Shown here piece by piece: positions 6,781-64,000 of a DNA stretch of 64,000 nt (its first letter is position 1; each line of letters begins with the position of its first letter). The notes under the pieces are model-generated. The model was not told the DNA's origin. It did not search any database and worked only from the letters and a program-made list of their open reading frames with translations. Where the stretch lies: NCBI GenBank assembly GCA_965208675.1, contig OZ242351.1, positions 2,292,834 through 2,356,833 of the forward strand. The letters run 5' to 3'. This stretch comes from Candidatus Poribacteria bacterium. Its GTDB lineage: Bacteria > Poribacteria > WGA-4E > PCPOR2b. The translations under genes were made by a program, and so were the position numbers.

Positions 6781-7084
6781 GGTGAGGCCTCGAAAAGATT
6801 GTTCATTTTGATTATACCATACAACACAAGATGAGAAAAAGCCAAAACCATTGATGCTGTTGAATCCAATAATTGTACGGACATCTTTTGATATCAGTGT
6901 AAAGTCCGTTAACAGCAGGCGAGTCTTCGGACTGATCGTATTTAAAGAACCACGTTATTTGCACATACCCCTTTCGTTTTACTTTTGCGTTTCAGGTTAA
7001 ACATGGTAAAATTATGCCGCCTCGTAACGTCCCAGTATTTGGGAAGATGATGCTTCGCAGCCATTTTGGAAAGGGAACGGGTGC

Positions 7085-8242
7085 ATGCCGGACGTTGTTG
7101 TTGGACATATTGAAGACCCAGAAAGCCTTAAAGCTGTATTCACTGAATTTGAACGACATCATCCCGGCATCAAAATAGGGATGGGACATTTCGAAGGCGA
7201 CGACGGTGAGGTTGCAACGGAGTATGGCGGCGTCCGATATATCTGGATTGATCGGGGCGCGGGCGAGGTCTTTCTAGATTCAGGTTATCGGACGCAAGAG
7301 GGAGATGGCGAGCGATTGCCCGCAATTTACGAAACGGATCGATGTGATGATGAGAATTGGTCAATATTGCAAACATTGGCGGGAAACCTTGACACACTCC
7401 ATGAAAGAATTAGACCGCCGGTTGAGGGCATATTAGACAGGGTAACGGAACGAACATTGGTTGGCGACATCGCCAACGAAATCTGGTTAATGGAGGAGAG
7501 CGGGGCCTCTCGCGGACAATGGTCCAGCCGACCGAAGGTGCGCCGTACCTTTGAACTTCTGCTGGTGAACTATTCTACTATCGGTTGGTCTACGAAACAG
7601 ACGAGTTCGTTTGAACCCATTCAAGCTGGCGACCAACTCACCGTACTGGATGATGAGCCGATTCGGGTGCGCGGGAAATTCAGTTATTGGTGGATTGAGA
7701 ACACGAACATCTTCATGACACACTTAACGACGGCTCGCCGCCTGCGCTATCTGCGTGATACGGCGGGCGGTTGCAATACTTCAACTGACGGTTTCCGCCG
7801 CTTAACCATGACATGGCATTGCAACACAGCGACCGCAGATGAGGCTGACGGCATCAATACGGTCAATAGCCATGTTGTCAACATTACTGCTCAGTCCTCG
7901 CGGACCCACTACCACCCAGCGATTCCGGTCGGCGGCGGCAAACCACAGCACGAAATCTACCTGGCGCTCAACCCGAGCGCGTATTCGTTGAACACTTACG
8001 GGCGCGATAGTCATCTACATGTATTTCCGGACCTTACAAATCTCGCAAACCACGAACAAATACCGCTAACACCGGGTGACGTCGTCTACATTCCGCCAGA
8101 TACCGGACATCGCGCCGTGGATGCCTTTGTGAACGTCGTAACGCTGCCCGGCTTCAAGCCGCATAATGAGGTTGATTTAGATGCGCAAATCAAGGAGACA
8201 ACCAACGGGAGTGTTCCCTACAATGAGAATGTGCTTCACTAA
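7085..8242 (+). CDS. Hypothetical protein with a C-terminal cupin-like beta-barrel
   Basis: Long ORF with no recognisable N-terminal domain. The C-terminal segment (HYHPAIP ... EIYLAL ... GDVVYIPPDTGHRAV) matches the two-motif cupin pattern. Confidence 0.45.
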   Translation: MPDVVVGHIEDPESLKAVFTEFERHHPGIKIGMGHFEGDDGEVATEYGGVRYIWIDRGAGEVFLDSGYRTQEGDGERLPAIYETDRCDDENWSILQTLAGNLDTLHERIRPPVEGILDRVTERTLVGDIANEIWLMEESGASRGQWSSRPKVRRTFELLLVNYSTIGWSTKQTSSFEPIQAGDQLTVLDDEPIRVRGKFSYWWIENTNIFMTHLTTARRLRYLRDTAGGCNTSTDGFRRLTMTWHCNTATADEADGINTVNSHVVNITAQSSRTHYHPAIPVGGGKPQHEIYLALNPSAYSLNTYGRDSHLHVFPDLTNLANHEQIPLTPGDVVYIPPDTGHRAVDAFVNVVTLPGFKPHNEVDLDAQIKETTNGSVPYNENVLH

Positions 8243-9269: not shown

Positions 9270-9305
9270 TTCAGATGGCTTTCAATCGAGATCGAAGGCG
9301 TACCT

Positions 9306-9530
9306 ATGGATAAATGGTATATCAGCGTAACAGTATTGAACGTACTCGCCCTCATTATGCTCATCGGATTCCTAATATACTTTTTTCAACCATCGGCGCT
9401 TGTAAAACGGTTAGGGCTTATCTTTTTCTTAACCGCGGGCACGTTGGTCATGGTTAGAGGTGTCGTAAAAATCACGATGGGCATGCAAAAGGGCGGGAAA
9501 TTACGGATCTCATCGAAAAAGAGAGACTGA
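9306..9530 (+). CDS. Small two-helix membrane protein, hypothetical
   Basis: Two hydrophobic helices and a basic C-terminus. Short ORF, so it could be spurious. Confidence 0.3.
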   Translation: MDKWYISVTVLNVLALIMLIGFLIYFFQPSALVKRLGLIFFLTAGTLVMVRGVVKITMGMQKGGKLRISSKKRD

Positions 9531-9591
9531 CCATCCCGTGTTGTAAACTACATCTCAATGGGGAAATCATAATCATTAACGGAGGGGAATC

Positions 9592-10545
9592 ATGATTGAC
9601 AATCGAACGAGAGTTGCACTTACCCGAGAAGGAAATCGACGCGAAAATGTCTTCACCGCACTCGATTTGGTCCGCGGCGATGTCGTTCCCAAGTTGCGGG
9701 ATCAGGTGATGTTGAAACCGAATTTCCTATCAGGCGACAACCAGTTGGCGTCAACACACGTTGACGCCATCCGCGGCACAATTGATTTTTTGCTGACTAC
9801 CGCAACCCCTCCGCAGGAAATCATTGTGGCGGAAGGCGGCAACGAAGAGGTACCCGGAGAGGCGTTCGAGAATTTCGGTTATTACGCGTTAATTGACGAA
9901 TACCCCATCCCAATTCGGTTAGTGGATCTCAATCAAGAGGAGAATTGGGAGGAGACGCACATCCTACTCGCGGATAGCAGTGAAGTACCCGTGTACATGC
10001 CCAAAACTGTGTTGGATTGCCCGTGCACGATCTCCGTCGGTGTCGCAAAAACGCACGATGTCTGTGTGGTTACACTTGCCCTTAAAAACATGATTATGGG
10101 GACATTACGCAAACAGGACCGCGTCAAGATGCACGGCTTCTGCACCCACGCGGAGCGAAAATTGCCCCGCGAGGCGCAGACACTGAACATCAATCTGATT
10201 CGGTTGTCCCGATATCTTCGTCCCGATATCGCCGTTATTGACGGATACCTAGGGTTACAGGGAAACGGTCCAAGTGGAACCGACGCCGTTGATTTCGGGA
10301 TTGCTGTCGCAAGTGCAGACGTGTTTGCCGCTGACACCGTGATGGCGAAGGCGATGGGCTTTGATCCGCTGCATCTTGGATTGATGCATTACGCCAAAGA
10401 GATGGGATATGGCACGGCTGCTCTTGATAAAATCGATGTGTTGGGGACCCCGGTCGAATCAGTGATCACGCCTTTCAAGCCGCATGAAACGGTGCATCTA
10501 CAATTGCAATGGCATGAACCCGATGCGATGCGTTATTTAGCATGA
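9592..10545 (+). CDS. DUF362 domain-containing protein
   Basis: The N-terminal segment (VALTREGNRRENVFTALDLV ... KPNFLSGDNQ) is characteristic of the DUF362 family. Confidence 0.55.
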   Translation: MIDNRTRVALTREGNRRENVFTALDLVRGDVVPKLRDQVMLKPNFLSGDNQLASTHVDAIRGTIDFLLTTATPPQEIIVAEGGNEEVPGEAFENFGYYALIDEYPIPIRLVDLNQEENWEETHILLADSSEVPVYMPKTVLDCPCTISVGVAKTHDVCVVTLALKNMIMGTLRKQDRVKMHGFCTHAERKLPREAQTLNINLIRLSRYLRPDIAVIDGYLGLQGNGPSGTDAVDFGIAVASADVFAADTVMAKAMGFDPLHLGLMHYAKEMGYGTAALDKIDVLGTPVESVITPFKPHETVHLQLQWHEPDAMRYLA

Positions 10546-10659
10546 GATGTGCGTATACGGCGATCGGCTTGTTTAGGCGGCATACGGACAGCCGAAACGT
10601 ACAGAATCGTTGGCGGCGGACGGATTGCCTCGCACCCATTGCATCAAACTAGAAAAAAC

Positions 10660-10688
10660 TTGACATGTTATCGAACGTTTGTTAACAT
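10660..10688 (+). promoter_or_regulatory. Sigma70-like promoter upstream of the ileS leader: TTGACA, 17 bp, TAACAT
   Basis: TTGACA at 10660-10665 and TAACAT at 10683-10688 with exactly 17 bp between them. About 470 nt upstream of the ileS start. Confidence 0.45.
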
Positions 10689-10917
10689 AGCGTTAAAGTT
10701 TGCCGCGACCTCAGATGGAGAGATTTGGATTGTGTCACATTCATTATCACGCGCCGCCGCAATGAACAAGACGCATAATAGAGGCATACCCGCTGTACAT
10801 TTCGTGTCTGCCTTGATTACAATAATCGCCGTCATTTGCGCGTCTTACGGTGGTGGGCTGACAGAAACGACCTAAATTCGGTTCCGCAATCATAATTATC
10901 CAAAATGCCCATTATCG

Positions 10918-27237: not shown

Positions 27238-28245
27238 ATGAAATCTCTTGTGATTCTCGCCGTTTGTGTTTTTCTCTATAGTTGCAGCATCGTGATGCCT
27301 GCACACGCCCAAACTGCTCAACAAATTGCCCAAAACGCCTTCAATTCTACTGTACTCTTGGTCGTGGAGGATTCCAACAGTCAGCCTATCGGGTTAGGAA
27401 GCGGATTTTTTGTGAAGCCTCAGCAGATTGCAACCAATCTTCACGTCGTCGAAGGTGCTACCAGCGGATACGCAAAATTAGTTGGTCAGAAAACAAAATA
27501 CGAGATTAGGGGCATTTCTGCAATTGATGAAGAACGGGATCTGGTAATCCTAAATGTCAAAGCTTTTGGTCCTCGCCCGCTTATTTTGGGTGACAGCGAC
27601 ACCGCACTGGTAGGAGAAACAGTTTATGCTGTAGGCAACCCGCACGGTTTGGAAGGTACGTTTTCGCAGGGCATCATCAGCAGCATTCGAACGGTCGGAA
27701 CCGACAAGCTAATTCAGCTTACCGCTCCGATTTCTCCAGGGAGCAGCGGCGGCCCCGTCCTAAATGATAGGGGAAACGTGATAGGTGTTTCAGTTGCAAC
27801 GTTCCGCAAGGGTCAAAACCTCAATTTCGCTATTCCTTCTAACTATCTGACGAAATTGATCTCGAAAGTGGGAGTTGCGAAACCATTATCGCAGAAATCA
27901 ACACCCAAATCCAGACGCTCCCTCCTTGCCAATTACGGCGGTCGAAGTGTCGAAGGAGTAACCGGCGGTATGATACAGTGGCACTACATCGGCTTACGTT
28001 CCGAATACTACGGCTACAGCTTTTCCTTACGGAACCGACTTCGCGAAGATGTAAGAAATGTTCGCTGTTTTGCAATCTTCCTTGATGACCAAGGCAATCC
28101 AATTGATACTCGGGATGTGGAGTTTGCTGGAATAATTCCTGCTGGGTTAGCGAAACGAGTAACGGGGAAAACGGTTCATGAAAGTGTCAAGAACCTGACA
28201 AAACAAGTAGAGTTTAGGGTCGTAGACTTCGACATAGTGCAGTAA
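27238..28245 (+). CDS. Secreted trypsin-like (S1/HtrA-like) serine protease carrying an uncharacterised C-terminal domain instead of PDZ
   Basis: Signal peptide. Catalytic His (TNLHVV), Asp (DLVIL) and Ser (GSSGGPV) in chymotrypsin order. The roughly 110-aa C-terminal region has no PDZ signature. Confidence 0.7.
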   Translation: MKSLVILAVCVFLYSCSIVMPAHAQTAQQIAQNAFNSTVLLVVEDSNSQPIGLGSGFFVKPQQIATNLHVVEGATSGYAKLVGQKTKYEIRGISAIDEERDLVILNVKAFGPRPLILGDSDTALVGETVYAVGNPHGLEGTFSQGIISSIRTVGTDKLIQLTAPISPGSSGGPVLNDRGNVIGVSVATFRKGQNLNFAIPSNYLTKLISKVGVAKPLSQKSTPKSRRSLLANYGGRSVEGVTGGMIQWHYIGLRSEYYGYSFSLRNRLREDVRNVRCFAIFLDDQGNPIDTRDVEFAGIIPAGLAKRVTGKTVHESVKNLTKQVEFRVVDFDIVQ

Positions 28246-38168: not shown

Positions 38169-39527
38169 TTAAATTGAATAAATCATACGGCTTGCTTCGT
38201 CAAAATCCACCTGAAAGGGGTTGGTTGAAAGGTAGAGCTTTTGGTAGGGTTCGTACAGTTGAATGTAACTCCAATTGACGCCGCAGAGCACCTTCCTTTC
38301 GTTTGCCAGCTTTACAAAACGCCCCCGGAATTTTGCGCGGGTGGTTTCCGGTGGATAGTGCATAGCGTTCTCAATATCCTTATCGGTAACCATTTTTTGA
38401 ACAAGATCTTTTTTTTCAAGTTTATAATACAATCCGCGATCTGGGCGGATATTGTGGTACTGTAGATCGAGCATCATGACTTTTGCCGAGTCCCATTTAA
38501 GGCGGCGTTGGGTGACATAGGTTTCAATCAATTTTTTCTTGGCGACCCAATCCAGTATTCGATCTAGTTGCATAGGGTCTGTTTCCAAACAGGTCAAAAT
38601 ACCTTCCCAGTACGCCATAATCTTGTTTTCGTCGGGACTCGATTCTTCATGCTCAAAATACAGTTTAGCGCATTCGAGATACTCTCGTTGAAGTTCCACC
38701 GCAGATAGCCGCTTGCCGCTCTCCAATTCAATCTGTTGGGTACAGGTCGTATCTTCCGAGATTTGCTGGATTGCTCGTACAGAATCGCGCAAAGCCAAAC
38801 GCTTTTTTATGAAATTGTCCTCAATCATCCGCAAGACAATTGAAGTGGTTCCAACCTTTAAAAATGTCGCTAACTCAGACATATTGGAATCGCCGACGAT
38901 AACGTGCAACCGCCTATATTTTTCTCGATCGGCGTGCGGTTCATCGCGTGTATTTATGATTCCCCGAGCTGTTGTCGTTGCAATGGAGATTTCCTCACGG
39001 ATATGCTGGGCGCGCTGAGAAATAACGTATTTGCCTCGGTTGGTCGGTTTAACTTTGCCGGCGCCCGCAAAAACTTGGCGAGTGACAAAAAATGGAATCA
39101 ACTGTGAAGCGAGTTGACGGAAGCTAACGTGCCGCTCCATTAGGTAGTTTTCGTGACAACCGTAGGTGTTTCCGGGCGTATCCGTGTTATTCTTGAAAAC
39201 TGAAATTCTCCCAAGGAAGCCATCAAATCGCATCTTACGTTCCGCAGCAACGGATAGCCGCTCAATAATCCGCTCACCGGCTTTGTCATGAATCACGACA
39301 TCCGTTACACTATCGCATTCGGGGGTGGCGTATTCCGGATGGCAACCAATATCCTGATAAAATCGAGCCCCATTTTCTAGAAATACATCCGGATACATTC
39401 GTCCAGAGATGATTTCGCGAAAGAGATACATCACGGCATTTTGGATGGATAGCGCTTTGCCGCCTCGCCGATCGGATGTACAAATTATCCCGTATTCATT
39501 TTCTAAGCCATAAATTCTACGATTCAC
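38169..39527 (-). CDS. pafA: Pup--protein ligase
   Basis: Glutamine-synthetase/GCL-like Pup ligase-family sequence (GLENEYG ... GCHENYL ... HVIVGDSNMSE). 452 aa. Sits at the distal end of the prcBA cluster, as pafA does in actinobacteria. Confidence 0.8.
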   Translation of the reverse strand: MNRRIYGLENEYGIICTSDRRGGKALSIQNAVMYLFREIISGRMYPDVFLENGARFYQDIGCHPEYATPECDSVTDVVIHDKAGERIIERLSVAAERKMRFDGFLGRISVFKNNTDTPGNTYGCHENYLMERHVSFRQLASQLIPFFVTRQVFAGAGKVKPTNRGKYVISQRAQHIREEISIATTTARGIINTRDEPHADREKYRRLHVIVGDSNMSELATFLKVGTTSIVLRMIEDNFIKKRLALRDSVRAIQQISEDTTCTQQIELESGKRLSAVELQREYLECAKLYFEHEESSPDENKIMAYWEGILTCLETDPMQLDRILDWVAKKKLIETYVTQRRLKWDSAKVMMLDLQYHNIRPDRGLYYKLEKKDLVQKMVTDKDIENAMHYPPETTRAKFRGRFVKLANERKVLCGVNWSYIQLYEPYQKLYLSTNPFQVDFDEASRMIYSI

Positions 39528-40243
39528 GATGATAATATCTCTTCGAGTTCATCCGGCAGGAGACGCCTGAATTTGCGTCTATTTCTATTTTCATCAAGGA
39601 CAGCGACTTCAAGCGTGTCAGCCGAAATGTGATATCTCTCATCTTCCTCCGCCTGCGCCTCAATGGTTTCAAAGCCATTTACAGCAAGCTTTACCGCATC
39701 CTTCAACTCTAATCCATCTTCGTACGCACCCTCAAGGAATTCTGAAATTTCATCCGATCGCCCGCCAATAATTGCATACTTCTGTTCTTCCCAAAAAGTG
39801 CCGTCAAACGAAAGCTGATAGATTCTATGACTCGAATCCGGATCCGCCCTAAGTTCGCAAAGAAGCAGTTCGACTTCAAGCGGTTTTGTATCTGTTTGCC
39901 AGAAAATTGCGGCAATTCGCTGTGAAAAAATGTTATTCGTTAACCATTTCGCAGTAACATCTGCACGGTTGAACGTATAACCCTTGATTTCTGCTTCTCG
40001 GATGCCGAGGTATCTTAGGGCTTCATATTCTGCGATACGGCCAGTAGCGGCGAGTGCAATTCGATCATAAATTTCCGAAATCTTGAAGAGTGTCGTCAAC
40101 GGGTTTTCCGCAACCATCACGATGCCGTCTTTGTATTCTAGAACAATAACCTCTTTGGCTCTTTCGATGCCGGTGCGGACAAAATCAGCTTTGTCCTGCA
40201 TGATTTGTTCCGGCGACACATAATACGGTGTGGACATCAACAC
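39524..40243 (-). CDS. prcA: Proteasome subunit alpha
   Basis: 20S alpha-type sequence with no N-terminal Thr active site. 239 aa. Immediately downstream of prcB. Confidence 0.85.
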   Translation of the reverse strand: MLMSTPYYVSPEQIMQDKADFVRTGIERAKEVIVLEYKDGIVMVAENPLTTLFKISEIYDRIALAATGRIAEYEALRYLGIREAEIKGYTFNRADVTAKWLTNNIFSQRIAAIFWQTDTKPLEVELLLCELRADPDSSHRIYQLSFDGTFWEEQKYAIIGGRSDEISEFLEGAYEDGLELKDAVKLAVNGFETIEAQAEEDERYHISADTLEVAVLDENRNRRKFRRLLPDELEEILSS

Positions 40244-40252
40244 CTCCTCTCG

Positions 40253-41071
40253 TTACATCTCTCTGAGGCTTGCAATTAATTCAGTGTAGAGCCGTTCGAC
40301 CTCTGAATCCGCAATGTCTGAAACGCCCGTTCGATCGATGCATTTGATTGTTGGGTAAATTCCACGAATCAAATCCGGTCCCGCTGTCCCCAAGTCCTCA
40401 TCGGCGGCATCCCAAAGCGCTTCGGCAACAACCTTCAATACCTCATCATGGGCCACATCCTTGCGGTAACGTTTCTTTAAGGTTGTCTGTGCATCCTTGC
40501 CGCCGGATCCTATCGCGTGATAATCTGCTTCTTCATACCGCCCGCCGGTAACATCATATTTAAAGATCTTGGCTTGTTTCTCCTTTGGATCATAACCGGC
40601 AAAAATTGGAATGACATATAATCCCTGCAGCGCCATACCAAGATTCGACTTCACCATGTTTGACAAATGATTTGCCTTGCCTTCCAAACTCAAGGTTGTG
40701 CCTTCTATTTTTTCGTAAAACTCAACCTCAACTTGGAACAGTTTTGCCATTTCAATACACGGCCCAGCGACGCCAGCGATCGCAATCGCTGAATGTTCAT
40801 CTACTTCATAAACTTTCTGGATGCGCCGCTCGCCGACCTGAAACCCTTCTACAGCCTGACGATCCCCGGCAATAATCACTCCCTCTTTGTAGACAGCCGC
40901 TAACACCGTAGTGCCTTTGAGCGCATCAAGTGAAACGGCATGATGCTGCGCGCTTGGCAGCGGAACGTCGGATAACGACTCCGTGTTGAATGCGGCATAC
41001 AGTTCAGGACGCCTGCGCTTGAGGATTTCAAGGAAATCGGAATTGCCGTAGTCGGCTACATCAAGCAGCAC
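40253..41071 (-). CDS. prcB: Proteasome subunit beta, with propeptide
   Basis: About 54-aa propeptide followed by the catalytic TTVLAAVYKEGVIIAGDRQA (the Thr1 would be exposed by processing). Ntn-hydrolase fold sequence. Confidence 0.85.
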   Translation of the reverse strand: MLLDVADYGNSDFLEILKRRRPELYAAFNTESLSDVPLPSAQHHAVSLDALKGTTVLAAVYKEGVIIAGDRQAVEGFQVGERRIQKVYEVDEHSAIAIAGVAGPCIEMAKLFQVEVEFYEKIEGTTLSLEGKANHLSNMVKSNLGMALQGLYVIPIFAGYDPKEKQAKIFKYDVTGGRYEEADYHAIGSGGKDAQTTLKKRYRKDVAHDEVLKVVAEALWDAADEDLGTAGPDLIRGIYPTIKCIDRTGVSDIADSEVERLYTELIASLREM

Positions 41072-41268
41072 TACTGCCCTCCTCTTTGAATATAATTCTC
41101 TACAAATTCTTCTGAATCTTCTTCTAAAATTTCGTCAATTTCGTCGAGAAGTTGGTCGAGATCTTCTTTGATTTCCTCCCCTTGTTCCGTAACTTCCGGA
41201 TCAGGTTGGATTTCCTCAGCATCTTGAGTCAAGTTATCTTTGTGTTCTTGCTGTTTTTCGGACGGCAT
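41071..41268 (-). CDS. pup: Prokaryotic ubiquitin-like protein Pup, with a GGQ C-terminus
   Basis: 65-aa acidic protein ending in ...YIQRGGQ. DQLLDEIDEILEE is the Mpa/PafA-binding helix. Located between dop and prcB. Confidence 0.85.
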   Translation of the reverse strand: MPSEKQQEHKDNLTQDAEEIQPDPEVTEQGEEIKEDLDQLLDEIDEILEEDSEEFVENYIQRGGQ

Positions 41269-41283
41269 TTATCTCTCCTCCTT

Positions 41284-42783
41284 TTAAAAATTGTTGTTGG
41301 ATCCGTGAATTGCATGAACGAGTTCTGATGCCGTACAGGTCCTCAATAGATTGCCCACAATTTCTTGAGTGCCAAAGTGTGGGCGGTCCATTAAGATTTT
41401 GTCTAATGAAGAACCATCAAGTGAAAAAATCATCGAATTCCAACTCGCGCTATGAATTTCGTGCGGGTATTTTTGCAAACACACACCCCGAAAATAGGCG
41501 CGTGTATCAACAGGTGGATGGGTCACAGCATTAACGATTTCCTCATGATTGAGTATTCGTTCGACGCGGCCGTTTTTGAGTAACCTGACATATAACCCTT
41601 TGTTTGGCCGTATGTCGTGGTATTGCAGATCCATCATTCGGACGCGGGGATCCGACCAACTGACACCGCGACGTTCGATATATGCAGTGATGAGGTTTTT
41701 CTTAATCACCCAATCGAGATGCCGATCTAGCAGCATCGGATTGACTTCGAGCTGATTGAGAACAAACTCCCATTTGTCCATCACATCCTGCATCACTGGC
41801 GTAAAATCCGCCTTAGGAAGATGTTTATGAGCCAGTTCGAGATAAGCCCGCTGCACTTCAATCGGCGTCCATCGACGTCCATCGTCCAAATCGAGGGGAT
41901 TTTTACATGATAAATCTCGCGACACCGTTTTAATTGTAGCAACGGGGTCTGAGAGTTTAAATGCATCCCCACCAACACCCATTTCAATTAATTTCAGCAC
42001 AATCGACGTGATTCCGACTTTCAAATAGATGGTGAACTCTGACATATTGGAATCACCGACGATTACATGCAATCGGCGGTACAATTTTTCATCGGCGTGG
42101 GGTTCGTCGCGGGTGTTGATTATCGGACGAGCCACCATGGTGCTCAATCCCACTTCCGTCTCAAAGAAATCTGCACGCTGCGAGATTTGATAGTCCGTTT
42201 CCTCCGCGCCGTTTTCGGCTCCAACTTTTCCGCTGCCGGTGATGATTTGCCGCGTCACTAGAAACGGGGTTAACCCCGCGACAATGTCCTGAAAAGGAAT
42301 ACTCCGATTCATCAGGTAGTTTTCATGGCTGCCGTAGCTATGACCTTTATAGTCGCTGTTATTCTTATATATGATGATGTCTTGGTTAGCCGGCAGCAAC
42401 TCTTCCGCAGCCATGCGGCTCAAATCTAATATCAGTTCTCCCGCCTTTTCATATTTCACAAGATCTCGGGCATTTGTACATTCTGGCGTACAATATTCCG
42501 GATGGGCATGGTCAATATAATACCGCCCACCGTTAATTAGAATGTCGTTGATGAGACTGTTGTTCTCTTGATCTGGAGGATTGCTTTCGCCCTCGGATAT
42601 AAACCCCCTTGCATCCACCAATGGGTTTTCCTGCTCATAATCCCACGTGATGCCCTTCGGCCCCCGATCCTTATAGATATTTACGATGAGTGTCGAGGCG
42701 GCGACTGGATCCTGATCTCGTGCATTTTTTACCGAAATCCCATACTCGGTTTCGGTTCCCATAATCATCGGTGTTGTTGTCAT
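41284..42783 (-). CDS. dop: Pup deamidase/depupylase
   Basis: Paralogue of PafA (GTETEYG ... GSHENYL ... HVIVGDSNMSEF). Longer at 499 aa and carrying an extra loop. Located directly upstream of pup, as in actinobacterial dop-pup-prcBA. Confidence 0.75.
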   Translation of the reverse strand: MTTTPMIMGTETEYGISVKNARDQDPVAASTLIVNIYKDRGPKGITWDYEQENPLVDARGFISEGESNPPDQENNSLINDILINGGRYYIDHAHPEYCTPECTNARDLVKYEKAGELILDLSRMAAEELLPANQDIIIYKNNSDYKGHSYGSHENYLMNRSIPFQDIVAGLTPFLVTRQIITGSGKVGAENGAEETDYQISQRADFFETEVGLSTMVARPIINTRDEPHADEKLYRRLHVIVGDSNMSEFTIYLKVGITSIVLKLIEMGVGGDAFKLSDPVATIKTVSRDLSCKNPLDLDDGRRWTPIEVQRAYLELAHKHLPKADFTPVMQDVMDKWEFVLNQLEVNPMLLDRHLDWVIKKNLITAYIERRGVSWSDPRVRMMDLQYHDIRPNKGLYVRLLKNGRVERILNHEEIVNAVTHPPVDTRAYFRGVCLQKYPHEIHSASWNSMIFSLDGSSLDKILMDRPHFGTQEIVGNLLRTCTASELVHAIHGSNNNF

Positions 42784-42808
42784 AAGCTAAAAGAATAGAT
42801 TGACATCT

Positions 42809-44623
42809 TTAAAGGTACGCCCCACCCTTTACAACTCTCACATCTTTCCTCTTGCGATCGGGTTCGTTCATCAAAGCTCTGATATTGACAATTCGTTCGC
42901 CTTTCCGTCCGGAAATCTTTGCCCAATCATCGGGATTCGTTGTGTTTGGTAAATCTTCGTTTTCTTTATATTCCTCTCGGATAGCGTGTTGAAGATCCTC
43001 AAGCGTAATGCCCCGCTCTGCTTCTTCAGAATTGATTAAGCGCTTGATTGCTATCTTTTTACTTCGAGCAACGATGTTATCAATCATCGCACCGCTCACA
43101 AAATCTTTGAAGTAAAGCGTTTCGCGCTCTCCGCGTGCATAAGTCACTTCGATGAATCTATTGTCTTCCGTTGTGGCGTACATCTCATCGACCGCTTGAT
43201 TAATCATGTGCTGAATTGCATCTTCCGGCTTTTGCTCAAACTTCTCTAATTCAGAAGGTGCAATGGGTAAATCCGAGGTCAAGTATTTTGAGAAAATATC
43301 CTTTGCGCCGTCTGCCGTGGGCCGGTCGATTTTGATTTTGATGTCCAGCCTACCGGGGCGCAAAACGGCTGGATCAAGAAGATCTTGTCGATTACTAGCC
43401 CCAATTACAATTACATCATGCAACCCTTCAACACCGTCAATCTCAGCGAGAAATGTTGGGACAACCGTTGACTCCATGTCGGATGAGATACCCATTCCTC
43501 TTGATCTGAATAAAGAATCCATCTCATCGAAGAAAATGATGACAGGCACACCTTCCTTCGATTTTTCTTTGGCTTTCGAAAAAACTTCCCGAATCTTCCG
43601 TTCAGTCTCTCCTACATACTTATTTAGCAGCTCTGGACCTTTGACATTTATAAAAAACCCTTTGACATCATCTCGACCTGTCTGTTGGCGCACCCGTTCT
43701 GCCAGATTGTTAGCAACAGCTTTGGCAATCAAGGTTTTTCCGCAGCCGGGCGGGCCATAAAGAAGGATGCCGACCGGTGAGGTTAAACTAAACTCCTTAT
43801 ACTCATCCGGATACAAGTATGGTGTTTCAATTGCATCACGAATGGCTTCAATCTGTAGATTCAAGCCGCCAATATTTGCATACTTGATGTCCGGCACTTC
43901 TTCAAGTAACAAATCCTGTACCTCGGAGTTAGGAAGTTTCTCCATGACCATGCCGGTTGTATGATTGAGCAATACAAGATCGCCCGATCGAATCGGCTCT
44001 GATTTCAGCAGATCGGAAATCTGAACAACCCGCTCTTCATCCGCACGAAGATTAACGATTATTCGGGTTTCATCGAGCCGCTCCTTTACTTTAACTACCT
44101 CACCATGCTGGTCAAAATCTCTAACGGCGACGATGTTCATAACACCATTGACAATAACTTCTTGACCCTTTTGAAGTTGCTCAATGTTGATGTCCGGATC
44201 GACATTGACTTTCCATCTTTTACCAGAAAGGTCAATGTCAACTGTTCCGTCGTCGTTGGACTGGAGAAATGCACCGTAGTTATTGGGGGGAGCGCTTAAT
44301 TGTTCCACTTTTTCTTTAAGGTGCTCCAGTTTCTCTTTGGCTTCCTGAAGTGTGCTTGTCAGTTTCCGATTTCGACGATGCGCCTGCATTAATTCGCGCG
44401 TCATTTCGTAAAGCCGGATTTCAACATCATCAGACGGAACGGCATTTAACCGCCTTCTTAGATTATCGACTTCGCTTTCCAGAGATTCGACAGTGAACTG
44501 CAATTCACGAATGCGTGTTTCATACGAAACCCGTTCCGATGAAGAAGGTGTCAGATCCAATGTTTCCTGAATGTCTTCACGTTTTGCGGAACCTCTTTTT
44601 TTGGTAGCCATAATTTTACCCAA
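42809..44623 (-). CDS. arc: Proteasome-associated AAA+ ATPase (ARC/Mpa)
   Basis: N-terminal coiled coil. Tandem OB-fold region. AAA+ Walker A GILLYGPPGCGKTLIAKAVA and Walker B IIFFDEMD. C-terminal ...GAYL docking tail. Confidence 0.9.
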   Translation of the reverse strand: MGKIMATKKRGSAKREDIQETLDLTPSSSERVSYETRIRELQFTVESLESEVDNLRRRLNAVPSDDVEIRLYEMTRELMQAHRRNRKLTSTLQEAKEKLEHLKEKVEQLSAPPNNYGAFLQSNDDGTVDIDLSGKRWKVNVDPDINIEQLQKGQEVIVNGVMNIVAVRDFDQHGEVVKVKERLDETRIIVNLRADEERVVQISDLLKSEPIRSGDLVLLNHTTGMVMEKLPNSEVQDLLLEEVPDIKYANIGGLNLQIEAIRDAIETPYLYPDEYKEFSLTSPVGILLYGPPGCGKTLIAKAVANNLAERVRQQTGRDDVKGFFINVKGPELLNKYVGETERKIREVFSKAKEKSKEGVPVIIFFDEMDSLFRSRGMGISSDMESTVVPTFLAEIDGVEGLHDVIVIGASNRQDLLDPAVLRPGRLDIKIKIDRPTADGAKDIFSKYLTSDLPIAPSELEKFEQKPEDAIQHMINQAVDEMYATTEDNRFIEVTYARGERETLYFKDFVSGAMIDNIVARSKKIAIKRLINSEEAERGITLEDLQHAIREEYKENEDLPNTTNPDDWAKISGRKGERIVNIRALMNEPDRKRKDVRVVKGGAYL

Positions 44624-58095: not shown

Positions 58096-58201
58096 ATTTT
58101 GGGATAGCCGAAAAAATCAGTGCCTGCCTCTGATTTGAGGCAATGGGGCAGGCACACTCCCAACATCATTCTCTTAGGACTTACGCAATAAGTTCAATAG
58201 T

Positions 58202-58229
58202 CCCCCTGATAAGGGGGATTTAGGGGGTT
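58202..58229. repeat. Second copy of the CCCCCTGATAAGGGGG hairpin plus TAGGGGGTT element, between the coxL-like and MoaD-like genes
   Basis: Nearly identical core to 26200-26241. Confidence 0.6.
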
Positions 58230-58340
58230 AGAAACATGGAAATAACGAGTTTTAAGTCCAATTTTTCCTTTTTCTGCTCAATTTGCGTAAGTCCTGTCTC
58301 GGTATTTCCAATCCTCCCCGCATTCATGTAAGGCGGTACC

Positions 58341-58826: not shown

Positions 58827-60950
58827 ATGACACAACCGAACCGCATCGAAACGATTCTTAAAGACAGCAATTATCATCTTTCCTTGTTTAAGGAAAGAGA
58901 GATTAAAGCGTTGCGCGACAATATCTTCATCAAAACTGTTAAGGGTGAAGAGAAGCCATTCGTCAACTGTATTGTACGGGACAAAGCGATTCAACTCAAA
59001 CCGGAAGAAGTCGTCCGCCAACTATATACGACAAAGCTAATCAATGAATACAGCTATCCCAAATCCCGGTTGGCTTTTGAACACCCTGTCAACTTTGGAA
59101 GTCAGAGGAAAAGTGCTGACATTGTCATCTTTGACAAGGACCGCCCTGATTCAGCCAATATCATCGTTGAGTTGAAAAAACCTAAACTCAAAGACGGTAA
59201 AAGCCAGCTACGCTCCTACTGCAATGCCACCGGTGCGCCGATAGGTGTCTGGACAAACGGGCAGCAGATTTCCCATTACAACCGCAGGGATCCGAATCAC
59301 TTTGAAGAAATCACCGATATTCCCAAAGTGGACCAAAGTCTTCAGGACATCCTCGTTGAACACTTCACGCTGAAAGATTTAATCCTCAAGGATAAGATTT
59401 CCAATGAGCAAAAATCCCTGAAGAATATAGTTTTGGAGATGGAGGATGAGGTGCTAGCAAATGCTGGCGTGGACGTGTTTGAGGAGATTTTTAAACTAAT
59501 TTTCACCAAACTTTACGATGAATTTCAAAGCCGGTCGGACAAGGAATTTCTAAACAGATTTGTGCGGCCAGCGACTAACATAGCTATACGAGAAAATCCA
59601 TACGGATATCGACAAGGGGTAGATTATGCTAGGCTTAAGGCTGCTGTCAAAAACGCTCCGGATGTTGGCTTCCGGCCGATGGAATTCCGAAATACAGGGC
59701 AGACAGATACAGAACTCAAACACAAAATACAGAACTTGTTCAATCAGGCAAAAGACGAGTGGCCGGGCGTTTTTTCCGATGATGACACTTTTGAACTTTC
59801 CGACAGCCATCTCGCTATCTGTGTATCCAGTTTGCAGGACATTAAATTGTTCAACTCCAATCTGCTGGTGGTGGACGAAGCCTTCGAATATTTGGTAAAC
59901 AAATCCGCAAAAGGGGAAAAAGGGCAATATTTTACACCTAGGCACGTTATTGATATGTGCGTTCAGATGCTGAAACCCAAGCCCGGCGAATATATGATCG
60001 ATACTGCTGCCGGTAGCTGCGGATTTCCGGTGCATACAATCTTCAAACTAACGGGGCATTTGTTCAGTAACCTCGAAATACCGCCCAAGGAGAAAGAGAA
60101 CATCCTAAAAGTGTTTGGCATCGACTTCGATGAAAAGACAGTCAGGGTTGCCAGAACATTGAACCTGATCGCCGGTGATGGCGAAACCAACGTTCTACAC
60201 CTGAACACACTTGATTTTGTGCACTGGAGTGACCGGACTGAGCGGGATAGAAAATGGATCAACACCTACGGTAGGGGGTTTGAACGGTTGGAACGACTCA
60301 GGGCGGAAAAAGAGGACAATAAGCAGTTCAACTTTGACATTCTGATGGCAAATCCGCCGTTTGCCGGAGACATCAAAGAGAGCCAACTATTGCATCAATA
60401 TCAACTAGGTTTCAAGGCAAACGGTGCGGCACAGAGTAAAGTTGGGCGTGACATCTTGTTTATCGAGCGCAATCTGGACTTTCTCAAACCTGGCGGACGT
60501 ATGGCGATTGTGCTTCCGCAGGGCAGATTCAACAATACATCCGACAAACATATCCGTGATTTTATCGCCGAGCGAGGGCGTATCTTGGCGGTCGTTGGAT
60601 TACATGGCAACACTTTCAAACCCCACACCAGCACGAAGACCAGCGTCCTTTTTGTGCAGAAGTGGGATGATGAACTGTGCCCAAAATTGGACGACTATCC
60701 GATTTTCTTTGCCGTGAGCGAAAAGGCGGGCAAAAACAAATCGGGAGATTATGTCTATGTCAAGAATAGCAATGGGCAGTATGAACTAGACAAAAACGGT
60801 CATCTGATTGTTGAACACGATTTGCATAGCCATGAGGGGCAATTAGAAGATGGCATCGCTGAAGCCTTTATCGAGTGGGCGAAGGAGGAAAAATTGAGTT
60901 TTTGGACGGATGCAGAAGATGGCGCAATGACAGAGCGACGCAAAGCATAG
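58827..60950 (+). CDS. Restriction-modification enzyme: an N-terminal HsdR_N-type PD-(D/E)xK nuclease domain fused to a gamma-class N6-adenine DNA methyltransferase (BcgI-A-like / Type IIG or Type-I-like RM subunit)
   Basis: Nuclease motif ADIVIFDKD ... IIVELKKPK (D...E-x-K). MTase motif I IDTAAGSCGF and motif IV NPPFAG. 707 aa. An S-subunit gene lies downstream. Confidence 0.8.
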   Translation: MTQPNRIETILKDSNYHLSLFKEREIKALRDNIFIKTVKGEEKPFVNCIVRDKAIQLKPEEVVRQLYTTKLINEYSYPKSRLAFEHPVNFGSQRKSADIVIFDKDRPDSANIIVELKKPKLKDGKSQLRSYCNATGAPIGVWTNGQQISHYNRRDPNHFEEITDIPKVDQSLQDILVEHFTLKDLILKDKISNEQKSLKNIVLEMEDEVLANAGVDVFEEIFKLIFTKLYDEFQSRSDKEFLNRFVRPATNIAIRENPYGYRQGVDYARLKAAVKNAPDVGFRPMEFRNTGQTDTELKHKIQNLFNQAKDEWPGVFSDDDTFELSDSHLAICVSSLQDIKLFNSNLLVVDEAFEYLVNKSAKGEKGQYFTPRHVIDMCVQMLKPKPGEYMIDTAAGSCGFPVHTIFKLTGHLFSNLEIPPKEKENILKVFGIDFDEKTVRVARTLNLIAGDGETNVLHLNTLDFVHWSDRTERDRKWINTYGRGFERLERLRAEKEDNKQFNFDILMANPPFAGDIKESQLLHQYQLGFKANGAAQSKVGRDILFIERNLDFLKPGGRMAIVLPQGRFNNTSDKHIRDFIAERGRILAVVGLHGNTFKPHTSTKTSVLFVQKWDDELCPKLDDYPIFFAVSEKAGKNKSGDYVYVKNSNGQYELDKNGHLIVEHDLHSHEGQLEDGIAEAFIEWAKEEKLSFWTDAEDGAMTERRKA

Positions 60951-61136
60951 GAGGCTTTTATTGCTAACAATAGCAAAAGAAAGATATATGTCAACCCCGA
61001 GGTTAGATGTCTCCCGGTTATCGGATGAAATGGACGATATGGAAAAAGAAATACAGTAATAGGCAGACTCCGTATGCCGTAAACCTTATGCAAATTACGG
61101 CACTCCAGCATCACCTAAAACTTGATTGTAATCATC

Positions 61137-61164
61137 GTAGGGAACAACAATCGTTGTTCCCTAC
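61137..61164. repeat. REP-type hairpin GTAGGGAACAAC-AATC-GTTGTTCCCTAC, copy 1
   Basis: Perfect 12-bp stem and a GTAG 5' tetranucleotide typical of RAYT-associated REPs. Upstream of the 423-aa ORF. Confidence 0.7.
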
Positions 61165-61210
61165 ACTGCGTAAGCTCTCAGACTGTGATTGATACAACAT
61201 TTCCGGAAAG

Positions 61211-62482
61211 ATGATTATGATTTTTATGATAGACGAAGATAATTACGACAATATCATTAAACGGCCATATAGACCACAATTTGATGGCAGGTTAGTTTCT
61301 GTAACATATGACGTAGAAAAAGACACATTGTCACATGTCGTTACCCAAAGAAACGGTATGCCCTTAACCGTGGTCCCTTTAATTGAAAAAGATATGTTCT
61401 ATAGTATAGACAAGAGTGGTAACGTCAACCCAATCACACATATATGCACTGATTCATCACATCCGCCTCTCGTTGAAGGCTTCGGGCAGAAGACATTGTA
61501 TCAACAGATTTCAGAGAAAGTTGCAGGGCATGTGACGGATGGAATCAAATTCAATGACATAGTTGATTTAATGTTGGACGAAGCGATTTCTATGCTGAGT
61601 AGCCCATCTAATTGTGTCTCCGAAGATGGAAGATTGCAGAGTATGCGTCGGCAAATTGCCAGAGATTGGGGAGAGGTGTTTTGCAAACTTGACAATTTGG
61701 GACATCTGACTGGGTGGTTTATAAATGAGTGTAAACGCGATAATAATGAGTTGCATTTTGTACTTGGGTTATTTGCTTTCGAGGCGATACGGATTTTATT
61801 TGCGACTGTCAATCAGTTGCGTGCCGGGTTGGCGGATGAGACATTTGTGTATTGGCGTACTCTTTACGAGACCTTTGTAAAAAGTCGATTCATGTTGAAA
61901 TTTAGCAAGGCGGATGCGGATCTGCCTGGACGGTTTCAGTATTATACGAATTCGGCATATTTGAAATTTTACTCAATATTTGCCCCCAAAGACGATCCTC
62001 ATGCGCAAGATAATCCGTGGATACAAATGGAAAGGTGGTATGAAACCCGTTATGAAAAACAGGGCAAAGGTAGTTATGGATGGGTATATCCTCTGATTAT
62101 AAATAAAAAGGGGGGACCGGTCATTAAACCAGCTTTCGGACAAATTATAGACGAGGTAGATAGAGGATCGAGATTTTCAGAAATATATTATGATGTGTCT
62201 ACTGCAAAGAGTCACGGGCAGTTTGTATGGAATCCTCTTATAGTTAGTCCAACAAAAGGAAGGGCGACTCATCTTGATCCATTTAGCATTGGAAATATTG
62301 CTCTGGTAATGGAGCTGATGATGCCTCTGTTTGAGGAGATTTTAGAGAACACCACCGAATCGTGCAGTAAGCCGGAACACGGCGTTGTGATGGGCATCGT
62401 GAGGGCCGCTATTGCAGACATAAATAATTCTATCGCAGAGGTTAAGGCATCTAATCCCGAAATACACGGTGGCATCGCATAA
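61211..62482 (+). CDS. Hypothetical protein of 423 aa, embedded between the RM enzyme gene and hsdS and bracketed by REP hairpins
   Basis: Long ORF on the same strand as the RM genes with AT-rich codon usage like its neighbours. No motif I can recognise. Confidence 0.55.
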   Translation: MIMIFMIDEDNYDNIIKRPYRPQFDGRLVSVTYDVEKDTLSHVVTQRNGMPLTVVPLIEKDMFYSIDKSGNVNPITHICTDSSHPPLVEGFGQKTLYQQISEKVAGHVTDGIKFNDIVDLMLDEAISMLSSPSNCVSEDGRLQSMRRQIARDWGEVFCKLDNLGHLTGWFINECKRDNNELHFVLGLFAFEAIRILFATVNQLRAGLADETFVYWRTLYETFVKSRFMLKFSKADADLPGRFQYYTNSAYLKFYSIFAPKDDPHAQDNPWIQMERWYETRYEKQGKGSYGWVYPLIINKKGGPVIKPAFGQIIDEVDRGSRFSEIYYDVSTAKSHGQFVWNPLIVSPTKGRATHLDPFSIGNIALVMELMMPLFEEILENTTESCSKPEHGVVMGIVRAAIADINNSIAEVKASNPEIHGGIA

Positions 62483-62499
62483 ACCCTTATTGAAATTTC

Positions 62500-62527
62500 G
62501 TAGGAAACTACAATCGTTATTCTCTAC
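62500..62527. repeat. REP-type hairpin, copy 2 (degenerate: GTAGGAAACTAC-AATC-GTTATTCTCTAC)
   Basis: Same architecture as copy 1 with four substitutions. Confidence 0.6.
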
Positions 62528-62579
62528 GAAATGCGCGTAACATGCAATTATTTCCAAAATCATTTCGCAATATAAATAA

Positions 62580-62804
62580 TCGGTTACGCGGAAGGTAAGA
62601 AAACGTTGGGGAAATCACAGATTTGGTTGGCAGAAATCATTTTATGACCACGTAATCAGAAACGATGAGGATATATATCGTGTCCGTGCCTACTTCCAAT
62701 ACAACCAACTGAACTGGAAATTGGATAAAAATAACCGAACCAACTGTAACAAATGGCATGGTGTAGGGAAAAACGATCGTTGTTCCCTACGAAGGACTCG
62801 TTAA
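62580..62804 (+). pseudogene. Decayed IS200/IS605-family Y1 (RAYT-like, REP-associated) transposase; only the C-terminal region remains
   Basis: The frame reads ...FGWQKSFYDHVIRNDEDIYRVRAYFQYNQLNWKLDKNN, matching the conserved Y1-transposase C-terminus (WQRxYYDHxIRNExxLxxIxxYIxxNPxKW). No HuH/Tyr N-terminal part. Upstream there is a frame-shifted fragment QLFPKSFRNINNRLRG. It is flanked by GTAG hairpins. Confidence 0.6.
62763..62790. repeat. REP-type hairpin, copy 3 (GTAGGGAAAAAC-GATC-GTTGTTCCCTAC), overlapping the 3' end of the transposase remnant
   Basis: Perfect 12-bp stem starting with GTAG. Confidence 0.7.
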
Positions 62805-62824
62805 AAATACAAATAGGGTGAATC

Positions 62825-63700
62825 GTGCAGTATTCAATTATGAATCATTCTGACATTGATTTAGGACATAGGATAGATGCCGAATATTTTCAGCCTACCT
62901 ACCTGCACATAGAAGAAAAACTCGTAGAGAATCAGGCAATACCACTGAAGAACTTTTGTTCTATTACCGGCAGCGCCTTTTATCCTGCTGCGATTCACCT
63001 TTATGCAGCTGATGGTTTACCATTTATCCGATGTGTTGACTGTGTCTCATACCCTATTATTACATCAAGACAAAGCACACAATTTGAAAAAATACCGAGA
63101 GAATTTGCCAATGAACATAAAAACATCAAGAGGTTGTCAAAAGGGGAAATAGTCATAACGAAAGTAGGAACCCCATGTTTTGCCTCGATAATTCATGATA
63201 TAGAGGAGATGGCTTTATCGCGCAATGTCTTAGGCCTGAAATCAATCGCTAATATTGATCCTTACTACTTAGTTGCTTTTCTACGTTCAAAATATGGTTT
63301 CTTACAATTGCTCAGGGAAAGAGAACTGACAATCCAGTTTAAATTGACGTTTGACCGAGTAGGAAATGTTCTCATTTTCAAGCCAGCGGATAATAAGTTA
63401 GAAAACCGAATAGCGGATAGCTTAATTTTACACGAAGCGATTAAAAAGGAATCAGAACAATTATACAGTCAAGCCCAAGCCCTCCTCCTCGCCGAACTTG
63501 GGCTTGCTAACTGGCAACCGAAACACCGATTGACATTTGTTAAAGACTACTCCGACACTGAACAAGCCGAGCGTGTTGATGCGGAATACTACCAGCCGAA
63601 ATATGAGGGAATCGTTGAGGCGATAAAAAACTGTATGGGCGGCTGGGATACGCTGGGGAATTTAGTTATGATAAAGAAATGTATAGAAGTAGGAAGCTAA
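62825..63700 (+). CDS. Restriction-modification specificity subunit (HsdS-like), first target-recognition domain plus central conserved region. It ends at an in-frame TAA.
   Basis: DAEYFQPTY ... and ... DAEYYQPKY conserved repeats flank a TRD-like block. GTG start. Confidence 0.7.
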   Translation: MQYSIMNHSDIDLGHRIDAEYFQPTYLHIEEKLVENQAIPLKNFCSITGSAFYPAAIHLYAADGLPFIRCVDCVSYPIITSRQSTQFEKIPREFANEHKNIKRLSKGEIVITKVGTPCFASIIHDIEEMALSRNVLGLKSIANIDPYYLVAFLRSKYGFLQLLRERELTIQFKLTFDRVGNVLIFKPADNKLENRIADSLILHEAIKKESEQLYSQAQALLLAELGLANWQPKHRLTFVKDYSDTEQAERVDAEYYQPKYEGIVEAIKNCMGGWDTLGNLVMIKKCIEVGS

Positions 63701-64000
63701 GAGTATCTTAATGAAGGAGTTCCTTTTGTTCGCGTCAGCAACTTAAACCCATTTGAAATCACTAGTGAAAAGTATATTTCCGATTCGGTGTATTCAAGAG
63801 CTGCGCAACACCAACCTCAACAAAGCGAGATACTTCTCAGCAAGGACGGTACCCCCGGCATTGCCTATTATTTGCGCGAGGTCCCTCCAAAAATGATTCC
63901 GTCAGGAGGAATACTCCGATTGAAAAGCAAGACTGATAGAATTGACAATGAGTATTTGACACTGGTACTAAATTCAATATTGACTAAAGAGCAATCAAAC
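63701..64000 (+). other. In-frame continuation of hsdS encoding a second TRD (EYLNEGVPFVRVSNL ... ILLSKDGTPGIAYYL ...), truncated by the window end
   Basis: 100 sense codons in the same frame as 62825-63700 immediately after its TAA. The sequence has classic HsdS TRD character. Confidence 0.6.

Follow-up and report, generated by a model that had tools for sequence, protein, structure and literature searches.

Type IIB restriction enzymes, which are defined by cleavage on both sides of their recognition site, consist either of two subunits (BcgI, BsaXI) or of a single fused chain (AloI, CjeI). The operons of restriction–modification (RM) systems can also carry embedded, independent defense genes, such as TgvAB in the Type I RM system of the Vibrio cholerae island VPI-2 and PrrC in EcoprrI (PMC11411939, which also cites the "embedded" candidates of Payne et al. 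2024). Sponge symbionts are known for their wealth of RM and other defense genes (PMC5649159, PMC5099237). Here we analyze a 64,000-nucleotide stretch of 'Candidatus Poribacteria' contig OZ242351.1 (hereafter, the window), in which the block 58827–64000 contains a nuclease–methyltransferase fusion gene (A), a gene of 423 codons (D), and a specificity gene (S), together with repetitive extragenic palindromes (REPs) and the remnant of a REP-associated tyrosine transposase (RAYT). The locus is probably a BcgI/Type IIB-like RM module that harbors an autonomous accessory gene, D, between its two subunits and that was later colonized and rearranged by REPs and a RAYT. It is a further case of the known embedding habit of defense loci and not a new kind of system, because the embedding of independent defense genes in RM operons is already established.

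The open reading frame (ORF) map runs on the + strand throughout: A (58827–60950) encodes 707 aa, D (61211–62482) encodes 423 aa—or, probably, 421 aa from a start at 61217—and S (62825–63700) encodes 291 aa. The gap between A and S measures 1874 bp, in line with the 1.9 kb given in an earlier note made from the letters of the window, and all features described in that note were found in their places. It had offered two explanations for the gap: colonization of the RM operon by a REP/RAYT element (a REPtron) or an accessory gene riding in the locus. The second is the better of the two, as the A–D–S order is kept in at least three genomes.

How does this arrangement compare with those of other Poribacteria? 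The nearest loci lie on complete chromosomes of 'Candidatus Poribacteria' metagenome-assembled genomes (MAGs); homologous loci are referred to here by L numbers, and coordinates given with them are their own. Besides the window, the order A–D–S is found in OZ244825.1 (L005/L008), where all three genes are intact (84, 76, and 60% identical to those of the window, respectively) and an intact RAYT lies upstream of A, and in OZ245030.1 (L010), which has a split A, an undamaged D, and, 12 bp beyond D, a different S that is likewise intact. The trio occupies two chromosomal sites, one beside cox and ThiS genes (the window and L010) and the other between nadK and recN (L005), and has therefore moved or been acquired as a unit. 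In three further Poribacteria genomes, D stands alone at nadK–recN with the last ~170–200 nt of A still there, and because this end of A is retained, these D-only loci are deletion derivatives. One of the deletions can be traced to its end points: the REPs at 9288 and 13327 of L005 bracket exactly the segment, from S through a gene for a 142-aa protein, that is missing in L006, which has a single REP. In L153, a close, Poribacteria-like relative whose A is 85% identical to that of the window, the slot holds instead a 134-aa PIN gene (10223–10627) whose start overlaps the stop codon of A, and the L153 locus has no REPs. With PIN in L153 and D elsewhere, the slot at the A–S junction thus admits different genes. 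L153 also carries, at ~6930–7100, a relic of the A tail plus the start of a PIN gene upstream of an HNH_3 gene, which indicates repeated module replacement at the nadK–recN hotspot. The earlier note's view of D as an accessory gene would have been undermined by relatives with A and S adjacent and the ORF unlinked to defense; that combination was not found in the relatives. Across the whole A family, however, D is exceptional, with ~80 D proteins against more than 8000 A homologues.

D persists where its neighbors do not. Its ORF is intact in all six Poribacteria genomes, with a ratio of nonsynonymous to synonymous substitution rates (dN/dS) of 0.25–0.38, and purifying selection acts on it in genomes whose A or S is broken or deleted. 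The earlier note saw no recognizable domain in this protein. Profile comparison corrects that view and places D as a divergent member of DUF5677 (PF18928). D itself scores 22 bits against the Pfam model, under the cutoff of 27.1, while the precomputed annotation of most of its 78 homologues is PF18928, and one family member (P0204) reaches 36.8 bits. A search with the D profile recovers canonical DUF5677 proteins, and HHalign matches the D family to 40 canonical members over 285 columns with 99.5% probability (E 1e-22). The D family has 40 invariant columns across four phyla. Residues conserved throughout the superfamily are R216 and E220 (within WRTL(H/Y)E), YGWA, and H335, to which the D subfamily adds C79-x4-H84 and C385-x4-H390, a pair that may form a metal site. 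An AlphaFold2 model (predicted local distance difference test score 72.9) has an all-alpha core preceded by a short N-terminal extension rich in beta structure, and the D profile matched nothing among the sequences of the Protein Data Bank (PDB). A HicB-like identity for the N-terminal extension of one clade of D proteins was considered and dropped, as Pfam DUF1902 matched at just E 0.068. For the role of D, an autonomous accessory gene of a defense or toxin-like kind is the best-supported guess.

Where else do D and its wider family occur? With ~50 clusters at E<1e-10 among 1.84 billion representatives, the D subfamily is very small. Within the GTDB species representatives, only MAGs from Poribacteria, Latescibacterota, Opitutales, and Caldilineaceae contain it, and the named genome matches come from phyla typical of sponge symbionts. 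The surroundings are those of defense islands. In L016, the gene before D encodes a 1162-aa N6_Mtase/MmeI-like protein with a full Type_ISP_C domain and ends 8 bp from D; in L012, D comes 53 bp after a gene for a 1082-aa N6_N4_Mtase and precedes trypsin-like, AAA_15, and UvrD genes. Elsewhere, D is part of a TIR/ThsB/SLFN island, behind HsdR and a fragment of YgjP (L017), stands beside GmrSD and decaying Type ISP genes (L027–30), sits beside insertion sequence (IS) elements near a cyclic oligonucleotide-based antiphage signaling system (CBASS) and away from RM genes (L018), or is solitary (L031). A Caldilineaceae copy (L015, 8396–10654) is split by an IS3-family (rve) insertion. In 3 of ~8 independent contexts, D is immediately 3′ of a DNA methyltransferase (MTase) gene, each of a different MTase family, which is far more than expected by chance. 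Canonical DUF5677, annotated as PHROG 27456 "unknown function," occurs as a moron between replication genes and hokD in an Escherichia coli lambdoid prophage and, in other cases, on plasmids near IS or toxin–antitoxin genes; the family is also enriched next to serine recombinases that mark defense loci (PMC12632615).

The gene upstream of D, A, combines an N-terminal PD-(D/E)xK nuclease with a gamma-class N6-adenine MTase, as the earlier note proposed: Pfam places HSDR_N_2 at residues 59–166 (E 4e-27) and N6_Mtase at residues 349–636 (E 1.6e-33), and the motifs D97...E114-x-K116, DTAAGSCGF, and NPPF are readable and kept in homologues. The PADLOC model MTase_I (PDLC03034) matches over the full length (E 3e-286). 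Homologues number more than 8000 at E<1e-30 and reach 75–85% identity across phyla, and dN/dS against the OZ244825.1 orthologue is 0.07. The best solved relative in the PDB is the Type IIB enzyme RM.BsaXI (E 1e-18), with a match that spans residues 449–616, the MTase core, only. In the window, A ends at a premature TAG: a TGG-to-TAG change at 60948–60950 severs a conserved tail of 37 aa, which also carries a 1-nt frameshift. The degenerate remnant of this tail (60951–61059, + strand; W..FI.NN..R.I.V.P.VDISRL.DEMNDME) was recognized by aligning its read-through translation with homologues of 740–750 aa and with P0103, an A–S fusion in which the tail acts as the linker to S. For the window–L008 pair, the synonymous divergence (dS) is 1.25 in A and 0.48 in D, a 2.6-fold gap between neighboring genes; this suggests an exchange of one of the two without the other, such that they would have differing histories.

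S, on the + strand like A, encodes a first target-recognition domain (TRD1) and a central conserved region, ends at an in-frame TAA (63698–63700), and matches PADLOC Specificity_I at E 5e-18, which bears out its earlier description as an HsdS-like specificity gene. The frame continues beyond the TAA on the same strand (63701–64000) with the start of a second TRD (EYLNEGVPFVRVSNL...), which is cut by the window end. Unlike this copy, broken by the stop codon, the sister S is intact and encodes 475 aa in L005 and in L153. TRD1 is ~85% identical to that of the L005 protein (9329–10756), whereas TRD2 is unrelated, which indicates a swap of domains that would alter one half of the recognized site. 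The two intact Poribacteria operons have, after S, a gene for a protein of 208–209 aa (L005, 10779–11408; L153, 12243–12869; 66% identity) that has hydrophobic C-terminal segments and no Pfam match and that may be a further component; the 263-aa gene found after S in Enterobacteria is not a homologue of the 209-aa gene of Poribacteria.

The remaining elements of the gap are mobile-element debris. The three GTAG palindromes reported at 61137, 62500, and 62763 are real and fold as hairpins (−21.6, −11.1, and −15.2 kcal/mol, respectively, with z −6.4 for the first). The 64 kb contain no further copy, against a chance expectation of 0; all three copies lie within the island, and the flanks of the sister loci have none. 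The repeated unit is longer than the 28-nt palindrome, as direct repeats of ~65 nt flank D. REP unit 1 (61100–61164) is made up of a ~37-nt conserved left arm and the 28-nt GTAG palindrome (61137–61164) and has a counterpart upstream of D in every Poribacteria locus. Unit 2 (62464–62527), its direct repeat, includes the final codons and stop of D and ends in a degenerate palindrome (62500–62527), and REP 3 (62763–62790) is a GTAG palindrome directly after the RAYT stop, in a position that matches L005 5527–5554; none of the repeats is assigned a strand. Between them lies the C-terminal remnant of a Y1/RAYT transposase that the earlier note had also recognized (62500–62756, + strand; residues ~97–181 of 181). 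It matches NCBIfam REP_Tyr_transpos (E 3.6e-5, model positions 95–133 of 146) and is 70–78% identical by tblastn to residues 97–181 of intact Poribacteria RAYTs (160–181 aa; L007/L005). It is without start codon and HUH motif and carries one frameshift and one TCA-to-TAA stop. The palindromes at 62500 and 62763 bracket this remnant, an arrangement as in L005. The former belongs to the remnant: its left flank is the 3′ flank of D, as in L006, and its right flank is the 3′ half of the RAYT, as in L007 and L005. The 62500 palindrome thus joins the REP behind D to a REP internal to the RAYT, and the 5′ half of the RAYT was therefore lost through recombination of these two.

How far does this REP family extend? 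The palindrome GTAGGGAAC...GATC...GTTCCCTAC is present on at least 120 metagenome contigs of the Joint Genome Institute (JGI) from sediments, wetlands, groundwater, sludge, and other sources, and is absent from viral contigs. In the JGI loci L033–L112, 65 of 81 copies are the GCAGATCTGC variant, mostly one per contig and with unrelated flanks. The palindromes are genuine, low-copy REPs of a widespread RAYT lineage and reach well past Poribacteria. Intact RAYTs carry the 28-nt palindrome in frame, where it encodes VGNNDRCSL (L007, 9668–9695; L005, 5262–5289), and it recurs at the same position, as VGNNDRCSL or VGNADLRSL, inside RAYT homologues of 45–59% protein identity in 8 of 80 loci examined (the metagenome loci L046, L049, L058, L059, L061, L062, L080, and L086). 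This in-frame REP may be a built-in site of self-inactivation or regulation. Some loci have an extra ~110–190 bp with palindromes of the CTGTAGTTG...CAACTACAG type between REP unit 1 and the start of D (L006, 7830–7990; L001, 9805–9990; L010, 9870–9990); this stretch is missing in the window and L007, and the REP loop of L005 has a 21-nt insertion. A near-copy (TGCGTAAGCTCT) of the motif TGCGTAAGTCCT adjoins REP unit 1 at 61167–61178, and TGCGTAAGTCCT itself recurs in L006, L001, and L010.

The explanation that we favor would run as follows. The A–S complex would methylate bipartite sites in the host and cut unmethylated incoming DNA without an HsdR motor, with S supplying two TRDs and A serving as both nuclease and N6-adenine MTase. 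The junction between the two genes would serve as a slot for an extra autonomous gene, which in this Poribacteria lineage is D. D travels with the module yet is independent of it, staying intact where A or S is mutated or deleted, and is most likely an RM-embedded accessory comparable to TgvAB, PrrC, and the candidates of Payne et al., probably with a role as a defense gene or toxin-like effector. REPs and a RAYT would have arrived later and would now drive rearrangement of the island: the 5′ half of the RAYT would have been removed when the REP inside that gene recombined with the one behind D, and REP–REP deletions would yield the D-only loci of the sister genomes. In the window, the RM part is decaying, with the tail of A lost and a nonsense codon in S, and D remains intact.

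Several observations weigh against this explanation. The 260-bp spacer between A and D contains a strong hairpin, a scan found no convincing promoter or terminator, and co-transcription of A, D, and S is putative. No sequence similarity is detectable between the nuclease domain of A and BsaXI, and the two-sided cleavage that defines Type IIB would be a presumed trait of the module. The window ends inside S, and the 3′ side of the island is known from the syntenic L010 alone. Structural comparison of D gave no informative match, and D and its relatives had zero matches in PADLOC, NCBIfam, and PHROGs. Some D homologues (L018, L031) stand apart from RM genes, and the single DUF5677 gene tested, from Enterococcus, gave no protection against six phages (PMC12632615).

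Could D instead be cargo of the REP/RAYT element, transposed into the A–S spacer as a REP–D–REP cassette? In favor of this, all Poribacteria loci have D between direct ~65-nt REP units; in L007, L001, and the window, D is immediately followed by a RAYT, whether intact or a remnant; and many metagenomes contain scattered copies of the REP family. Such REPs do not accompany D in Latescibacterota, Opitutales, Caldilineaceae, or a second Poribacteria clade, however; the RAYT of L005 lies upstream of A, the 12 bp between D and S in L010 are free of REPs, and the slot of L153 is filled by PIN in a locus with no REPs at all. The six Poribacteria D genes, moreover, are confined to two chromosomal sites and are always accompanied by A or its relic. 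RAYTs, which are domesticated enzymes present in single copy, are not known to carry other genes along as cargo. We therefore think this origin of D very unlikely. The colonization that the earlier note envisaged accounts for the hairpins and the dead transposase, but not for D, whose homologues in other phyla lack these REPs. That D is a functionless hitchhiker or a miscalled ORF in a decaying island is highly improbable: the neighboring genes are decaying and the D protein evolves faster than A (dN 0.12–0.14 vs. 0.09), but the ORF is intact in all loci seen, its dN/dS is that of a constrained gene, and the family is kept across four phyla with its invariant columns and its homology to a Pfam family over 285 columns.

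A closer tie between D and the RM enzyme is also conceivable. D could be a functional partner—either a latent toxin guarded by A–S, as PrrC is by EcoprrI, or a regulator of the MTase—and the conserved position between A and S, the three independent cases in which D lies directly 3′ of unrelated MTase genes on the same strand, and the other occupant of the slot, a toxin-type PIN gene overlapping the A stop, all speak for such a role. We nevertheless consider it unlikely, as D endures intact where A and S are missing or broken and as A rarely has D. It is quite unlikely that the A–S junction is dedicated to the exchange of toxin-like effectors (DUF5677 or PIN), which the RM complex would keep latent and which would fire when a phage disables that complex; if true, D would be the first of a new family of abortive-infection effectors coupled to methyltransferases, which sponge symbionts from several phyla would share by horizontal transfer. 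Of these unlikely readings, a PrrC-like guard role for D is the most interesting. An autonomous accessory embedded in a Type IIB-like module remains the explanation that we prefer.

What is the genomic setting of the island? The claim that the block is AT-richer than its flanks holds in both checks of composition: its GC content is 42.6%, compared with 49.3% for the rest of the window, with all same-size windows elsewhere higher, and its tetranucleotide distance exceeds that of every other window within the 64 kb. By this foreign composition, the block is judged to be horizontally acquired. Outside the block, the window is ordinary chromosome (e.g., IleRS, RecA, and Pup-proteasome genes), and OZ245030.1 is syntenic with it, with CoxM/S/L and a ThiS-like gene upstream in both and 77–86% nucleotide identity. 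A cyanobacterial origin was rejected, as the highly iterated palindrome HIP1 (GCGATCGC) shows no enrichment. Between the CoxL-like and ThiS-like genes, the window carries an element of ~120 bp (58176–58295) that resembles a miniature inverted-repeat transposable element, has perfect 13-nt terminal inverted repeats (AGGACTTACGCAA / TTGCGTAAGTCCT), and is missing in the syntenic L010. Farther upstream, two Pup-ligase family genes (PafA/Dop-like) and a proteasomal AAA ATPase (38169–44623) point to a pupylation system on the chromosome, and a low-GC patch at 28–31 kb adjoins a trypsin-like peptidase gene (27238–28245).

Most accessory genes in the defense islands of sponge symbionts are uncharacterized, and the locus gives DUF5677 a concrete and testable context: a rare subfamily that repeatedly lies directly behind three unrelated kinds of MTase/RM gene. 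D outlives its host RM module, the slot of a sister genome is filled by PIN, and D is thereby nominated for the growing class of defense genes embedded in immune operons. OZ244825.1 offers an intact operon that can be cloned and tested. The locus is also a clean natural case of REP–REP recombination deleting genes, the RAYT itself included.

How, then, does the island compare with described systems? Its RM module shares with Type IIB enzymes a PD-(D/E)xK nuclease followed by a gamma-class N6-adenine MTase on one chain, a two-TRD, HsdS-like subunit that is either separate or fused, and the lack of HsdR. As the earlier note supposed, A and S are normally contiguous: on a Klebsiella plasmid and an E. 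coli integrative and conjugative element, a homologue 52% identical to A is followed by S after 8–9 bp, and in Picosynechococcus pAQ6 and P0103 the two are fused into one polypeptide of 1179–1225 aa. By architecture, the module would be Type IIB (BcgI/AloI-like) and presumably works as such. It departs from that class in that its similarity to BsaXI is confined to the MTase catalytic region, its nuclease is of the HSDR_N_2 type, annotation pipelines name the A family "Type I MTase" or "N-6 DNA methylase," and here an extra gene parts A from S and both subunits are lesioned. The module is not a classical Type I system, because no HsdR (ResIII/helicase R) gene is present in the L005, L153, Klebsiella, or E. 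coli loci, and that assignment was rejected also on account of the nuclease being on the MTase polypeptide. The only NCBIfam matches of A and S are MAD2 and MAD5. A MADS system was likewise rejected, as these scores are far below the cutoffs (286 bits vs. 720 and 55 vs. 400, respectively) and the other mad genes are absent; D matched none of the mad models.

The remaining comparisons concern D and its surroundings. With DUF5677 (PF18928; PHROG 27456), D shares the WRTL(H/Y)E, YGWA, and S/N-x-H motifs over the 285 aligned columns, as well as an accessory or mobile setting; it differs in its score below the Pfam cutoff, in the small size of its subfamily, in clade-specific N-terminal extensions, and in the extra CxxxxH...CxxxxH pair. 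The repeats resemble a REPtron in their 28-nt GTAG-headed hairpins, their tie to an IS200-like Y1 transposase that they flank, and their dispersal in metagenomes, but the RAYT of the window is dead, with intact copies in L007 and L005, and here the REPs serve as deletion end points. The island also resembles loci with RM-embedded defense genes: an unrelated gene on the same strand lies between the RM subunits, its position is conserved, and its occupants vary (D or PIN). Compared with TgvAB, PrrC, and the candidates of Payne et al., the host is a two-gene, Type IIB-like module rather than a Type I, bacteriophage exclusion (BREX), or Hma system, and D, a member of DUF5677, would be a candidate by its position.

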